From the NCBI GenBank assembly GCA_963696385.1, contig CAVOKF010000007.1, positions 640,001-704,000 of the forward strand: 64,000 bases of DNA, given 5' to 3'. A program made the position numbers. This document shows, piece by piece, positions 32,601 through 38,600 of the stretch (the first letter of the stretch is position 1; each line of letters starts with the position of its first letter). This DNA comes from an uncultured delta proteobacterium. Its GTDB lineage: Bacteria; Myxococcota_A; Polyangia; Polyangiales; Polyangiaceae.

Positions 32601-35600
32601 ACCGACGAGCGCGGAGACGATGGCGCGCAGCATGCTGCATCCTAGGACGGCTCGCGCGGCCGTGGATCGGCCATCGCGAGATCCGCTCTCGCGAGACCCT
32701 CGCGAGAGTGGTGGGCGGCATCGCCCGAGGCGTGCACGCCCCGCCGCATGGCCCTTGACCGGTATGGCCTCGTGGGCTAGAGGAGGCTCGTGGTGGTTCG
32801 GTGGCGCGTTGCCCCCGGACTCGCCATCACGTGCCGGGTCGTAGGGAAGCTGGTGAGAGTCCAGCGCGGCCCCCGCCACGGTAACCAGGGACGATCTCGG
32901 ACGCAGCCACTGGAAGTCTCCGTGCGGAGCTTTCGGGAAGGGTCCGAGGGAGGCGGCGCGAGAGCGCCACACCTGGAAGTCCGGAGACCGGGTCCGATGC
33001 GTGTTTCTCCTTTTGCAACAGTCCGCGCCGGGGTTGGCGCGGCCCACGGGGACCCATGGGTAGGCAGCGGATGGTCTTCTTTGCCACGCTCGTGTCGAGC
33101 ATGGCCGGAGGGGTAGCGTGTTCCAGCAGCGGCGGTTCGGAGACGCCCGACGCTGGAAAAACCGATGCGGCGGTGCTCGCCGATGCGCAGGGCTTCGAGA
33201 CCGGCCCGATCGATGGATCTCCGGTGAACGACACCGGGGCTCCGGCGCTCGACGGCGGGGGCGCCGACGTGGCGAGCGAGGGCGCGGCCGATGCGGCGAC
33301 CGACGGGACGGCCGATGCGGCGACCGACGGGACGGCCGATGCGGCCGCCGACGGCGCGACCGATGCGGCGGGCGATGTCGATGCGACGCCTGCGCCGCGC
33401 CTGCTTCTCTCCTACAACGGTGAGACGACGAGCGAGCTCGTGGCGTTCGGGCTCGACTCCAAGGCCGTCGACGGACGCTTCATCTACCCGGGATACATCG
33501 GCACGACCTTCGTCACGCCGACGAGCCCGTGGCTGCTCGAGCAGGGCAACGACGTGGTGGGGCGGTTGGATCCGCTGCAGCCGTGGGTCGTCCAATCGTC
33601 GTGGAGCGTCGCGTTGAACGACCGGACCGACGCGGGTTTCGCAGAGCCGTACTCCGATCCCGATGGAGTGGTCGTCGGAGCCGGGACCAAGGCCTACGTG
33701 CTGAGGTACACACGCAACCTGATCGCCGTCGTCGACACGACGCAGAACGTGGATGGCGGCGCGCCCGTAAGCACGATTGACCTGAGTAGCCAACTGCAGG
33801 CGGGCGGCGACGGCTACGTCGAGATGACGGCCGGCTGGTACGATGCGGCCCATAGCCGTCTGTACGTGCTGCTCGGCAACATCAACCGGGCCGACGTGAG
33901 CTGCAACGGATACTGCCAGCTCTGCTCGGACACGAGCCCGACGATCGTCGCCATCGACACGACCACCGACACGATCGTGCCGCTCGGCGGGGACGCGGGC
34001 GGCGTCGCGACCTCGGGCTACGCGCTCGAGGGCTACGACCCGGCGTTCGGGCCCTCCCCGATGGTCTACGATCCGCCGAACAACCGCTTGCTCGTGCTCG
34101 AGACCGGCTGCACCAGCGTCGCCGAAGACGGCGGACCCGGCCCGGTGGTGCGCCGCGAGGTCGAGGCGGTCTCGCTCGCCGACGGATCGACCGCCACGCT
34201 GCTCGACCTCAATTCGGCCGCCTTCCCGCAGGCGATCTTCTACGTCGACTCGAGCCACATCATCCTGCAGCTCGACACGGCCTACGCGTGGGACCCGACC
34301 ACGACGACGCTCGGGCCGCCCATCCCGAACGCGCCGGACACATTCGACGTCGATGGGAATGGCAACCTCGTGGGCGTAACGCAGAACTACGGCCCGGACG
34401 GCGGGCCGACGGGGACCAGCGTGATCACAGTGAGCTCGGGCGACGGCGGCGTCACGACACTCGGCCAAAACCCCTTCTCGCTGACCAACGGCTTCGTCTC
34501 GGGTGCACAGTTATGGCCGGCACCCTGAGGGCAGGCGGGTGGGCGCCCCGCGCGGCGCTGCTTTTCTCGTTGCTCGTCGGTACGGGTGGGGGATGCGGGG
34601 CCACTTCGCCCGCGGCGAGCGGATTGGGCAGCCCCGTTGCCGGCGGGAGCCAGGGCGATGGCGCGAGCGGCGCGGGGGCCGCCAGCGGCGAAGACGCGGC
34701 CGGGGCCCGGGCCGGAGAAGACGCCGGCACTGCAGGGCCCGAGGCGGTGTATGCGGTCGGCGACGGGGGTCTCGTCCTTCGCGCCGATCGGTTCGTGACG
34801 ACGGTCGTCTCGTTCAACCCGACCGATTGCACGGGCTTTGGCCAGGCCTCGATGCCCGCCATCGTCGAGGGGCCTCCGGTCGGTGGCGGCACCGACCACG
34901 GGAGTACGGACGTCGTTTCGCTCGGCAGCGGCGGAAGTATCGTCGTCTCGTTCGCGCCCAACGCAATCGTCGACGGTCCAGGAGCCGACTTCATCGTCTT
35001 CGAGAACCCGTTCTGGATCGGCGGCGACCCGAACGATCCCTACGCGGAGCCTGGGGAGGTGAGCGTGAGCGACGATGGCGTCAGTTGGAGCGCATTTGCT
35101 TGCACTCCGACCCTGGATCCCCAGGCGGGCGATGGCACCGGCGTCGCAGGCCCCTACGGGTCGTGCGGAGGCTGGCAGGTCGTCTACTCGAACGCCGAGA
35201 ACGGAATCTCGCCGGTGGACCCGAGCGTCGCCGGCGGCCTCGCGCTCGATCTCGCCACCGTGGGGCTCACTCACGCGCGGTACGTGAAGATCGTCGACCT
35301 GACCCACGAGGACTGTCCCGAGGCGGGGCCGCGGCCGAACACCAACGGCTTCGACCTCGACGCGGTCGCGATCATCCATGCCGAGCTGCCGTGAGCCGGC
35401 ATGCGCTGCGGTCGCCGCTGTGCTGATCGCGTCGACCGCCACGGCGCTGTGTCGGAGCGCCCGCGCGCAAGCCGATGAGGTGACGGTGCGCGGCGACTCC
35501 ACAGCCGATTTCACTTCGCGCGCTGACGAACGCAACACGGTCCGCGAAGTCACGGACGCCGCAAGTCTGGTCGAGCCCCTGCCCGGCGTGCACATCCGCC

Positions 35601-38600
35601 GCTACGGCGCAGACGATTCCTTCACGACGCTGAGCATCCGCGGTTCGTCGTCGACCGAAGTCGGAATCGTCTTCGCCGGCGTCCCGCTGACGGGAGGAGG
35701 CGACCCGTCGCTCGACCTGTCGACTCTACCCCTCTGGCCGGGGGCCATCGTGCGCGTGCACCGCACCTTCACCCCGGCAGCGATCGGCCCGGGATCGCTC
35801 GGCGGGACGTTGGTGCTGGATCCGCCCAGCCCGTCGTCGCCGCCGTCGACCGAGGTGTGGGGCGCCGTCGGGAGCTACGGGGAGGCGCGGATGCGCGCGG
35901 CCGACGTGCGCGATGCCGGCGGGGGCGCCCGCGTGGTCACGGCACTCGCCGCGTCGCGCGCCGACGACCGCTTCAGCTACCTCGACCCGACGATCTCGAC
36001 GCCGGGCCACGACGTCTATTCGATTCGCCAAAACGCCGGCCATGCCGCGGTCAACGGTCTCGTGTCGTGGGCCGTGCCGGTGCGGTGGACGGGGGGCAGC
36101 ACCGGCGCACTCACGATTACGACCCTCGCGCAGGCGCGTCGCCAGGAGCTGCCCGGCACCGTGTTCGTCCCGACTCCCTTTGCCGATCTCGACTCGGATC
36201 GTGAACTCGCGTCGGCGCAGCTGAGCGGGGCCGCCTTTCGTGGCGCCTGGAGCGTACGCGCGTGGGGAAGGCGCGACGGCCTTCGGCTCTCCGATCCCGA
36301 CGTGCCCGCCGCGCTGGGGCCGGCCCGGTCCGACGAGACCCTCACCGCCACGGGAGGATCCCTCGGGTGGAGAGGGCGCCCCTTGTCCTCCACCCTCGTC
36401 GAGCTGCGCGTCGACGGAAGCGGAGAGCACTACGAGCCCGGCGTGACGGCGGGGGCCCCTACGCCGCCCGGGGCGACGCGCCTGTCGGCGGGCGCCGCAC
36501 TCGATGCCGAGTGGCGCGCGGCCGAAGCCGTCGCCTTGGCGGCATCGGGCCGCCTCGACGACTGGTCGAACCTCGAGTCGAGCACGAGCCCTCATTCAGC
36601 GGGCGGCCCAGCGCTGCGTCCGACCGGGCACCTCGGCGCAGAGATCGCTATCGACGCCGTGACGGCCGCCGCGCACGGTGGGGCGACGGCGCGACCGCCG
36701 AGCTTCATCGAGCTCTACGGGGACCGCGGCGCGTTCGTCGGAAACGCGAACCTGGTGCCCGAGTCGGCGTGGACGGTGGACGCGGGCGTGCGGACGTCGC
36801 GTCGGCTGGGGCCGGTTCGCCTCGCGGCGGAGATGGCTGCGTTCGGTACATGGGCGCACGATCTCATCACGTTCATTCCCGTGGGCGCGTACGGGCGTTC
36901 GGAGGCGACGAACATCGGGCTCGCGCGCCTGGTCGGCGTGGAGGTCGACCTGCGGGCGGCGGCGGGACCGATCGAGCTGCGCGCGTCGTACACCGGGCTC
37001 TCGACCGAAAACGACTCGGCATGCGAAGCGGCCCCAGGTCCCTGCGCGCACCCGCCGCTGCCGGGCAAACCCGCGAACGATCTCGTCGGTGACCTGATCG
37101 GAACGCTCGGCCCGGCCAGCGCGCGCGTCGGCGTCGACGCCTTGAGCGGAATGGTGGCGGACGTCGCGGGCAGCATCGGCGTACCGCCCCGCGTCCTCGG
37201 GTCCGCGGGCGTTCGGGTCGACGTCACGCCCGGCGTGCGTCTCGCGCTCGACGTGCGCAACGTGTTCGACGTCCGCACCGGGACGTACGCGGGGGCGATT
37301 GGCCCGGTGCACGAGCCCATCGGCGACTACTACGAGTACCCGCTGCCCGGGCGGACGTTCCTCGTGAGCGTGAGGTCCACGCAGCCCGCCGAGGGGCGAT
37401 GACCGTTGCCTCTGTCTCGCCCGCACGGCTTGCCCTGACAATCGCCGGGGTGGCTTTGACGGCCGCGTGCGGCGGAGGATCCACGCCCTCGACGAGCCCC
37501 TCCGCGTGCCCCGGATCCGATGCGCTGTGGGTCGCGAGCGATTACACCTCGAGCTCGGTCGGAGCGCTATCGACGTCGGGCGTTGTATGGGCCACGACCG
37601 GTCGCGTCAACCTGGGAACGGATCCGGCGCTCTCCGTGTCGCGGGGCCGCGCCTTTTATGTGGCCCGCGACGAGGACACAATCTTCGAGATCGGCACGTC
37701 GTGCGGCAACCCCACCCAGCAGTGGAACGTGCACCAGGCGAGCTCCCCCGGTTCGTCCGATCCCCAAGACGTGGCCGTGGCGAGCGACGGCTCGCTCTGG
37801 ATCCCCCTCTACCTCGTGCCCACCCTTTTGGTGATCTCTCCGAGCGGTGCCGTCCTGCACACCCTCGACCTGTCGAGCTACGACAGCGACGGCAACCCCG
37901 ATGCCTCCGCGATCGCCATCGTGGACACGCCGGCCGGCGAGAAGGCGTTCGTGCCGCTGCAGCGGCTGACCTGGAACGGCCAAAGCTACCAGGCCGAGCA
38001 ACCGTCCTCGATGCTGCGCGTCGACGTCGCCACCGCGACCGTCGAGGCCGAGATCGCGCTCGCAGGTCGCAACCCGTTCGAGATGGTTCAGGACGGCAGC
38101 ATCCTCTGGTTGTCCGAGCCCGGGGAGTCCGCGGACGGGGGCTTCGCCAGTACGACCGATGCGTTCGGAGGCATCGAGCGCTTCGATACGTCGACCTCGA
38201 CGACGGCTCTCATCGCGCACGAAGCCGACCTCGGCGGCAGCGTCGTCGAGGTGGCCGTCAGCGGATCCTGCGGCGCGGCCATCGTCGCCGACGCGACGCT
38301 CGTCAACGCGACGTCGCTCGTCACGTTCGACCCCGTGTCGGGCGCGCCAATCGCCGCCGCCTCGCAGAGCCCCTTGGCGACCGTCGGTCCCGACGGGGGC
38401 TTTTACCTGCAAGGCAGCCTGTGGCTCAACGGGGACCTCTACATCGGCGACCGCCGACGGGCCACCGACGGTTACCCCGTGCACGCCTTGAGTTCGACCG
38501 CGGCCTGCGCGTTGGAGATCCAGCCCGACGCGATCTTCCTGCCGCAGCCGCCGGTGGCGGTGCGGGCGCCGGATTAGGATGAGGCGGTCTTCGCCGTCGC

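Follow-up and report, generated by a model that had tools for sequence, protein, structure and literature searches.

The operon described here, in the genome of a Polyangiaceae myxobacterium, probably encodes an outer-membrane system for corrinoid capture, with BtuB-type, BtuG-like and BtuH-like components under cobalamin-riboswitch repression, a reading that draws on the directly observed riboswitch, gene order, protein families, fold resemblance, profile match to the BtuH domain and comparative linkage. The sole Rfam match within the window, i.e., the whole 64,000-nt stretch of DNA that was analysed, is a cobalamin riboswitch aptamer (RF00174) at 32819..33011 on the + strand (69.1 bits, E 5.6e-15, full model 1-189), which is also the single RF00174 match in the whole 6.9-Mb genome. 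It is followed by a leader with the expression platform, running from the aptamer to the first start codon (33012..33055, +), where a GC-rich segment resembling a hairpin and, ahead of the ATG, a purine-rich one were read by eye from the sequence. Four genes follow on the + strand, gA (g04852), gB (g04853), gC (g04854) and gD (g04855), with overlaps of 16 nt (gA/gB), 17 nt (gB/gC) and 4 nt (gC/gD, where the gD start overlaps the gC stop). The Rfam search and the gene coordinates thus reproduced what the genome-wide survey's note had reported, namely the riboswitch coordinates and score, a spacing of 59 nt between the aptamer and the gA start at 33071, and four same-strand genes overlapping by 4 to 17 nt. 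In the orthologous loci (L001-L004), the riboswitch occupies the same position in 4/4. The lipoproteins gA, gB and gD are all very acidic, with net charges of -27 to -46, and their lipobox cysteines lie where the survey had placed them, invariant or nearly so across relatives.

The third gene, gC (35378..37402, +), encodes a predicted BtuB-type TonB-dependent outer-membrane transporter of 674 aa with the Plug and TonB barrel domains of Pfam, and no second receptor of its type was found in the genome at E<=1e-20. Using the gC family profile A3, the best solved chain was E. coli BtuB (6.3e-34), followed by BtuB1, BtuB2 and BtuB3 of B. thetaiotaomicron at 2.2e-28 to 3.5e-24. These matches bear out the survey's designation of gC as BtuB-type and, together with the riboswitch, its view of the operon as B12-regulated outer-membrane uptake. 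Expression of E. coli BtuB is also under a cobalamin riboswitch, yet the btu genes of E. coli are described without a lipoprotein partner comparable to those found here.

The BtuH-like lipoprotein gB (34513..35394, +, 293 aa) combines a tether of roughly 60 residues with a C-terminal domain of about 200 aa that is very highly conserved. Its 36 aligned relatives share 73 invariant columns, and the lipid-site C28 is conserved in at least 90% of them. The survey had given no Pfam match for gB and gA at E<=0.1, and neither has one even at E<=1. Among named sequence families, the one nearest to gB is LIC_13355 of Leptospira (NF033170, PMC11891782), likewise lipoproteins, which is matched by gB at E 2.6e-13 and by 37/41 members of the gB family. 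At 49.8 bits, gB falls short of the cut-off of 120 and so represents a sister family of LIC_13355 rather than a member. Work on LIC_13355 has treated it as an adhesin that binds laminin and plasminogen, and B12 and TonB go unmentioned in the passages of PMC11891782 that were searched. Searching 177,635 PDB chains with two broad gB profiles, A4 (41 rows) and A7 (a 24-row subset of A4 minus the window sequence and its Polyangiaceae relatives), yielded the same single chain, 8blw_B, at residues 387-499 (E 0.0014) and 381-499 (E 6.1e-4), respectively; BtuH2 itself (7BIZ) was not matched by either profile. The matched segment is the H-domain of BtuG1, an extension homologous to the B12-binding BtuH2 (Abellon-Ruiz 2023, PMC10404256), and BtuH2 binds B12 with a KD of 6.4 pM. 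Compared with BtuH2 and the BtuG1 H-domain (BtuGH; Putnam 2022, PMC8941943; PDB 7BIZ, 8BLW chain B), gB carries no PKD/Ig stalk but a low-complexity tether, and the match is remote, with a marginal E-value of about 1e-3 and coverage of the first ~115 of 200 domain residues. The predicted model of gB is poor (pLDDT 53.4). Judged by these profiles, the gB domain is distantly related to the BtuH domain, which binds B12, making gB a candidate corrinoid binder. This reading of gB is new here, as the survey's note gave it no interpretation.

Across genomes, no other part of the operon is linked to cobalamin riboswitches as consistently as gB. The gene occurs in 242/401 Myxococcota genomes, with a riboswitch upstream in 13/20 extended loci and in 7 of the 12 further genomes. 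In Acidobacteriota, the order in all 11 loci is riboswitch, then gB, with a BtuB-type receptor following in 10/11. Within loci L099-L115, the riboswitch adjoins both gB and gD in 11/17, and a BtuB-type receptor belongs to the cassette in five of these (L099, L106, L113, L114 and L115), whereas in L107 it directly precedes the riboswitch. Both gB and gD are missing from G225 (97% complete), the nearest genome sampled within the genus.

The second propeller lipoprotein, gD (37399..38577, +, 392 aa), has a short tether, a net charge of -27 and a lipid-site cysteine, C24, found in 62/62 relatives. Its Pfam rows are all insignificant (Mala_s_1-like 0.047, NHL 0.99), as the survey had noted, and the count of 415 relatives at E<=1e-3 was obtained again exactly. 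The gD model (pLDDT 92.1) displays a strand pattern fitting the seven-bladed beta-propeller that the survey had reported, and the closest solved fold of the modelled protein is BtuG. BtuG entries took ranks 1-5 in Foldseek (E 5e-13 to 2.9e-10) and ranks 1-3 in VIA against 48,161 chains, and a second VIA look placed all 11 of them above every other propeller, so that the survey's claim of BtuG as nearest structure holds in three rankings. Unrelated seven-bladed propellers trail by a small margin of 0.4 to 2.2 Z, and identity to BtuG in the structural alignments is 13-17%. The single gD sequence had no PDB match, and profile A1 found NHL propellers and no BtuG chain in the PDB. The broader profile A6 reached BtuG1 at the edge of noise (E 0.0037), about level with YncE (0.0045), while NHL/Pizza propellers scored better (7.5e-8); Pfam DUF5074 did not match gD or its family. 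NHL propellers have six blades. None of the NHL-repeat or YncE/YVTN propellers is known to be tied to B12 uptake, and gD models with seven blades.

The first gene, gA (33056..34528, +), may start at ATG 33071 (485 aa) or at ATG 33056 (490 aa), the latter giving a positively charged MGRQR start. The acidic tether of gA is roughly 90 residues long and rich in Asp/Ala/Thr/Gly, the mature form has a net charge of -46, and the lipid-site C22 is invariant in 32/32 relatives. In hhalign, gA matched the gD family with a probability of 98.0% (E 2.6e-13, 263 columns), and the gD profile matches gA at E 8.6e-8, which makes the gA beta-propeller a paralogue of gD. It is an accessory gene kept in some orthologous operons only, being present in L001 and L003 and absent from L002 and L004. 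The survey's proposal of two BtuG counterparts is supported in part, by the fold of gD and by the gA-gD paralogy, but the sequence searches (A1, A6, DUF5074) do not establish that the propellers are homologous to BtuG.

It could be argued that only gB and gC handle corrinoids, and that gD and gA belong to the general run of NHL/YncE-type envelope lipoproteins, with some other role, e.g., as enzyme, scaffold or assembly factor. While seven-bladed propellers resemble one another, which would account for the BtuG likeness, and while the fold margin is narrow and both gD profiles find their best sequence matches in NHL/Pizza propellers, the ranking of 11/11 BtuG entries above all other propellers speaks against this explanation, which we consider rather unlikely. 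Genomic context bears on it from both sides. The nearest gD relatives (35-46% identity) lie outside any B12 context in 11/11 Polyangiaceae loci, with no riboswitch, receptor or gB nearby and with PilY1-like and polysaccharide genes adjoining; the window's gD clade nests among them in a quick tree, and gB stands alone behind the riboswitch in L080-L083 and L085, with no propeller or receptor 7 kb either side. In contrast, distant gD relatives have a BtuB-type receptor alongside in 7/9 loci (and lie behind a riboswitch in 5/9), gD-like genes accompany riboswitch-linked gB in the 11/17 loci mentioned above, and BtuG1 fuses a BtuG propeller to a BtuH domain, matching the gD-gB adjacency.

A periplasmic location, with the lipoproteins on the inner leaflet of the outer membrane relaying corrinoid arriving via gC, seems improbable. 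Myxococcota lipoproteins have no known surface-export signal, and the Bacteroidota signal after the lipid cysteine has no counterpart in gA, gB or gD, in line with such a relay, as is the lack of a btuF-like gene among the ORFs of the operon and its near flanks. Yet known BtuG and BtuH act at the cell surface, and capture outside the cell agrees with tethers that are long and acidic and with strongly acidic surfaces, both arguments being by analogy only. Least probable, and hardly to be expected, is B12-controlled import of something besides complete cobamides, e.g., cobinamide-type precursors or a cobalt complex. It would fit the 35.9 bits of gC against the NCBIfam BtuB equivalog, far under the cut-off of 599.7, and the genes cobQ and cbiX, 1-4 kb downstream of the operon, which together with CbiC and CobS not being found in the genome (96% complete) hint at salvage of incomplete corrinoids; against it, gC has its best solved relatives among BtuB proteins. 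As cobinamide is also bound by BtuG and BtuH, precursor import would be a variant of the corrinoid-capture reading rather than a true rival.

The host uses B12, with 12 matches to the B12-binding domain in its genome, 10 of them over the cut-off, but probably cannot make it, as neither CbiC nor CobS was found although the genome is 96% complete. For the corrinoid-capture operon, we propose that low B12 would let the riboswitch permit expression of four translationally coupled genes, with gC as the BtuB-type TonB-dependent transporter. As a candidate lid or capture protein, gD most likely takes the BtuG role: exposed on the cell surface, it would dock on gC, bind corrinoid on one propeller face and deliver it to the barrel, while gB and gA, on their longer tethers, would be surface-exposed extra capture or reservoir proteins that also bind corrinoids and reach further from the membrane. 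The BtuB-BtuG system of B. thetaiotaomicron (Wexler 2018, PMC6143338; Abellon-Ruiz 2023, PMC10404256; PDB 8BLW, 8BMX, 8P97) shares three elements with it, namely the cobalamin riboswitch, the BtuB-type TonB-dependent transporter and, next to the latter, an acidic seven-bladed propeller lipoprotein, and the net charge of BtuG2 (-18e) attracts B12. The operon described here differs in its phylum, Myxococcota, in its two paralogous propellers, in lipoproteins without the Bacteroidota export signal, and in the sequence likeness of gD to BtuG, which stays at the edge of noise. The literature searched describes BtuG as exclusive to Bacteroidetes, as the survey had said, and places the toolkit almost only in gut Bacteroidetes; here, a BtuG/BtuH-like toolkit would be found in a soil myxobacterium.

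A cobalamin riboswitch (RF00174) at positions 32819-33011 on the forward strand heads the operon and matches the full Rfam model (positions 1-189) with 69.1 bits (E 5.6e-15) against a gathering threshold of 31.5 bits. It is the sole Rfam family in the 64-kb window, and the 6.9-Mb genome (96.4% complete) holds no second RF00174 match. Four open reading frames on the same strand follow: gA (g04852; 33071-34528, or 33056-34528 with an upstream ATG), gB (g04853; 34513-35394), gC (g04854; 35378-37402) and gD (g04855; 37399-38577), with consecutive overlaps of 16, 17 and 4 nt. Pfam recognises only gC among the four, with a Plug domain and a TonB barrel, while gA, gB and gD each begin with a signal peptide and a lipobox cysteine that is invariant or nearly so within its family. 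The riboswitch-headed four-gene operon and the lipoprotein N-termini described in the genome-wide survey's note are thereby upheld, and all of its re-runnable numbers were reproduced, including the 415 gD relatives. The mature lipoproteins carry net charges of -46 (gA), -27 (gB) and -27 (gD), with a pI of about 4.05; a net charge of -18e has been reported for BtuG2 as attracting B12. In translation, the tether of gA (33122-33385, residues ~23-110) contains imperfect acidic repeats of the TDGTADAA type.

The source organism belongs to the Polyangiaceae, and the closest public locus is found in a MAG of that family, where gD is 96% identical. Of the close orthologues, L001-L004, all four loci carry the riboswitch together with gB, gC and gD, and two carry gA. 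The window's genus has one further sampled genome, G225 (97% complete); it is without a gB or gD match, so the operon is not fixed even in close relatives.

A profile built from gC plus nine orthologues, searched against the PDB, returned E. coli BtuB as all six top chains (6.3e-34), followed by B. thetaiotaomicron BtuB1-3 at 2.2e-28 to 3.5e-24 over nearly the full length, which supports the earlier description of gC as a BtuB-type transporter. The protein has the Plug and barrel domains of BtuB, whose barrel has 22 strands, and characterised BtuB proteins as its nearest solved kin. The NCBIfam BtuB equivalogs TIGR01779 and NF007926 are not reached (35.9 bits vs a cut-off of 599.7, and 29.5 vs 836), and gC is therefore a divergent BtuB-type receptor; it is the only one in the genome at E<=1e-20. 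Two other TonB-dependent receptors with an N-terminal TonB_C domain lie downstream in the window, each split over two frames. For the receptor at 43160-45699, TonB_C and Plug are held in 43160-44887 and the barrel goes on in 44134-45699; the break near 44,880 reflects a sequencing error, a frameshift or a pseudogene. The second, at 48013-50899, has TonB_C in 48013-49023 and Plug and barrel in 48716-50899.

For the propellers, the sequence evidence is weaker than the structural. The gD model, built from 62 sequences, reached a pLDDT of 92.1, and BtuG came first by three structural rankings; in Foldseek, BtuG took ranks 1-5 (E 5e-13 to 2.9e-10), and 1l0q scored 3.5e-10. The closest solved fold to the predicted seven-bladed propeller of gD is thus consistently BtuG, by a small margin. 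Searched alone with phmmer, gD gave 0 PDB matches at E<=10. The gD family profile A1 found no BtuG among 53 PDB matches; it found NHL-repeat propellers (TRIM3 at 9.8e-13, Pizza designs, PknD). Profile A6, made solely from 22 gD relatives linked to a riboswitch or receptor, listed every BtuG chain, yet weakly (BtuG1 0.0037, BtuG3 0.18, BtuG2 0.2-0.5), alongside the non-BtuG propellers Pizza (7.5e-8) and YncE (0.0045). At E<=10 neither gA nor gD matched DUF5074, which we take to be the Pfam family of BtuG; 2/22 gD relatives did match it, with a best E of 0.24. Wexler 2018 defined BtuG by BlastP at E<=1e-10 against BT1490, BT1954 or BT2095, and gD shows sequence homology neither to these proteins at that level nor to DUF5074. 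The nearest fold supports the proposal that gD is a myxobacterial BtuG counterpart; sequence does not establish homology.

The corrin contacts of BtuG2, as published, include Glu55, Gln93, Asn107, Ser131, Ser195, Tyr196, Gln219, Tyr239 and Trp272, and BtuG1 and BtuG2 share their contacts only in part. The gD lipobox reads ...LTAAC-GGGS, with the cysteine (C24) present in 62/62 relatives as judged by eye, and Gly/Ser-rich residues follow it; the known surface-export signal after the lipoprotein cysteine is described as specific to Bacteroidota. Aligned with the gD family by hhalign, gA gave a probability of 98.0% (E 2.6e-13, 263 columns), and on this comparison it is a true paralogue of gD. Profile methods were required to link the two, since BLASTP of gA against gD found no match.

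Gene neighbourhoods offer another view of whether such propellers belong to B12 uptake. A gD-like match at E<=1e-10 occurs in 150/401 sampled Myxococcota genomes. A public-genome search with gD alone yielded 5 loci. Linkage to a btuB-type gene in a riboswitch-controlled locus, as known for BtuG, is seen in the window operon and in all four close orthologous loci. Among distant relatives from other families (27-33% identity), 7/9 have an adjacent BtuB-type receptor and 5/9 a riboswitch, and two of the remaining loci are truncated at contig ends. Around the 11 best-scoring gD-like loci, all from Polyangiaceae, the window's own family, and at 35-46% identity, flanks of 7 kb on each side show neither riboswitch nor receptor nor gB. 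In a quick tree rooted only at the midpoint, the window clade is nested among these stand-alone Polyangiaceae copies, with an SH-aLRT of 98 for the set of 12. Because the distant relatives are linked and the 11 closest Polyangiaceae copies are not, the link of the propeller scaffold to B12 uptake holds in most cases, though not in all.

Two of these 11 paralogue loci adjoin PilY1-like proteins of ~1,280 aa and polysaccharide-export genes. There, gD paralogues without B12 context sit beside large secreted proteins (L029:2598-6428 and 6910-8154; L031:7029-8171 and 8715-12590), and the neighbours comprise the ~1,280-aa proteins, which carry a PilY1 beta-propeller domain, as well as a sulfatase and a Polysacc_synt gene.

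The remaining lipoprotein, gB, has an exceptionally well conserved C-terminal domain of ~200 residues with 73 invariant columns in 36 relatives. No Pfam domain was assigned to gB, further comparison with Pfam gave only weak F5/8-type-C matches, and an ESM Atlas search returned only its own family; a model from 36 close relatives reached a pLDDT of 53.4. A narrow gB profile (A2) gave only a chance row against the PDB, at E 2. The broad profile A4, representing the domain in 41 genomes, was searched against 177,635 PDB sequences and returned at E<=10 a single chain, 8blw_B (BtuG1), over residues 387-499 with an E of 0.0014. Profile A7, built from 24 sequences with the window and its Polyangiaceae relatives excluded, again returned 8blw_B alone (residues 381-499, E 6.1e-4). 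As the propeller of this chain, when aligned to gD, stops at residue 375, both matches lie beyond it, in what is described as a ~250-residue H-domain homologous to the B12-binding BtuH2 (Abellon-Ruiz et al. 2023, PMC10404256), for which a KD of 6.4 pM for B12 was reported (Putnam et al. 2022, PMC8941943). The match of gB to BtuH has a marginal score, spans roughly half the domain and stops short of BtuH2 itself, yet no other chain was matched, both profiles reproduce it and it makes functional sense; the A4 and A7 profiles thus suggest a marginal and partial sequence homology between gB and BtuH.

In the same work on BtuH2, Gln333, Asn399, His476, Tyr510, Trp511 and Trp577 are given as B12 contacts, together with a structural calcium site (PMC8941943). 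A PKD/Ig-like N-terminal stalk or a fused propeller is absent from gB, which has a Gly/Ala/Ser-rich tether in place. Such additions are no strict requirement for BtuH, because Putnam 2022 also lists homologues without additional domains (PMC8941943). No propeller-gB fusion like that of BtuG1 was found in the 17 loci L099-L115, and the long open reading frames of L099-L104 were ruled out as fusions, being over-extended frames or carrying a small extra N-terminal domain. One form of gB carries ~100 additional residues as an N-terminal domain and the C-terminal tail ...TDANANGVPDA(V/A)E (L101:4782-5873, L103:4132-5358 and the C-terminal parts of L102 and L104); it has no Pfam match and no riboswitch in the fetched stretch, and a receptor lies ~3 kb upstream.

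Among named families, gB is nearest to the LIC_13355 lipoprotein family of Leptospira (NF033170). It aligns to positions 54-156 of the 273-position profile with 49.8 bits (E 2.6e-13), and 37/41 gB relatives match the same family. The curated cut-off of 120 bits is not reached by gB, which is therefore related to the LIC_13355 family, but no member. In the literature LIC_13355 is described as an adhesin that binds laminin and plasminogen (PMC11891782), and a B12-binding role has apparently not been considered so far; by the matches described here, its family is a sister to that of the BtuH-like domain of gB.

Among the operon's genes, gB shows the most consistent link to cobalamin riboswitches. 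Genes like gB are found in 242/401 Myxococcota genomes, mostly as a single copy. In 13 of 20 extended gB loci, Rfam detects a same-strand cobalamin riboswitch no more than ~0.8 kb upstream; our own nhmmer model adds a weak fourteenth, and neither method found one in the other six. Of 12 further gB genomes, taken with 1.5 kb of flank on each side, 7 carry a riboswitch. In five Polyangiaceae loci (L080-L083 and L085), gB, near position 7,000, stands solitary directly behind a cobalamin riboswitch, with no receptor or propeller within 7 kb on either side.

Among L099-L115, chosen for adjacent gB and gD matches or a long gB frame, the riboswitch adjoins gB and gD in 11/17, while L100-L105 are without one. 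A BtuB-type receptor lies inside the riboswitch-gB-gD cassette in five (L099, L106, L113, L114 and L115). The order is riboswitch, gC, gD, gB in L099, L106 and L115, and riboswitch, gB, gC, gD in L113; in L107 the receptor is found just upstream of the riboswitch. Locus L114 (1011-6522) shows two divergent cobalamin riboswitches, one leading into gB and the other into a receptor and propeller. Outside Myxococcota, gB-like genes were detected in 18/201 genomes of Acidobacteriota, the phylum of the Terriglobia MAG that holds locus L005. In L118-L129 minus L121, a twelfth locus left out because its genome is flagged as unpublished, a riboswitch precedes gB in 11/11 and a BtuB-type receptor comes next in 10/11, the eleventh being cut by a contig end.

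The metabolic setting fits a demand for imported corrinoids. The 96%-complete genome yielded neither CbiC nor CobS, an absence that is no proof, and the B12-binding domain has 12 matches, 10 of them above cut-off; on these two grounds the organism looks like a B12 user reliant on import or salvage. Just downstream of the operon lie CbiX, a sirohydrochlorin cobaltochelatase (39495-40310, reverse strand), and CobQ, a cobyric acid synthase (41482-42939, forward strand), and their presence without CbiC and CobS may reflect partial corrinoid salvage.

At low B12, the riboswitch would open and the four coupled genes would be expressed, with gC serving as the TonB-powered channel and the lipoproteins presumably exposed at the cell surface. 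Here, gD is the strongest candidate for the role of a BtuG-like lid, one that would dock on gC, given its short tether, its gene overlap with gC and the phylum-wide pairing with such receptors. By analogy, gB, on a tether of ~60 residues, and gA, on an acidic tether of ~90 residues, may bind corrinoids further out and hand them on, much as a relay of BtuH, BtuJ and BtuK has been proposed in Bacteroides (review PMC13616437).

Competition for B12 shapes microbial communities, and studies of capture with the help of lipoproteins have been limited to gut Bacteroides. BtuG was reported as exclusive to Bacteroidetes from a BlastP comparison at 1e-10 in 313 gut genomes (Wexler 2018, PMC6143338), a 2024 preprint gives the same exclusivity, and according to a 2026 review BtuH occurs predominantly in Bacteroidota, with three Firmicutes besides (PMC13616437). 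No BtuG-type system in Myxococcota was described in the published literature searched. For soil Myxococcota and Acidobacteriota, this operon and those related to it suggest the same capture strategy, its sequences having diverged beyond the reach of BLAST; new here are the BtuH link and the phylum-wide counts. Taken together, it is possible, though we would stop short of calling it probable, that the kit of BtuB-type transporter, BtuG-like propeller and BtuH-like domain is not a Bacteroidota invention but old and widespread in soil phyla, that gB is a near-universal, riboswitch-controlled corrinoid binder of Myxococcota (242/401), also found in Acidobacteriota and there always in the order riboswitch, gB, BtuB-type receptor, and that the LIC_13355 'adhesin' family is a further branch of this B12-binding family. 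If true, gB, a lipoprotein family that is very common but lacks annotation, would gain a function, the LIC_13355 family of Leptospira might have a different role, and new high-affinity B12 binders would become available to study.
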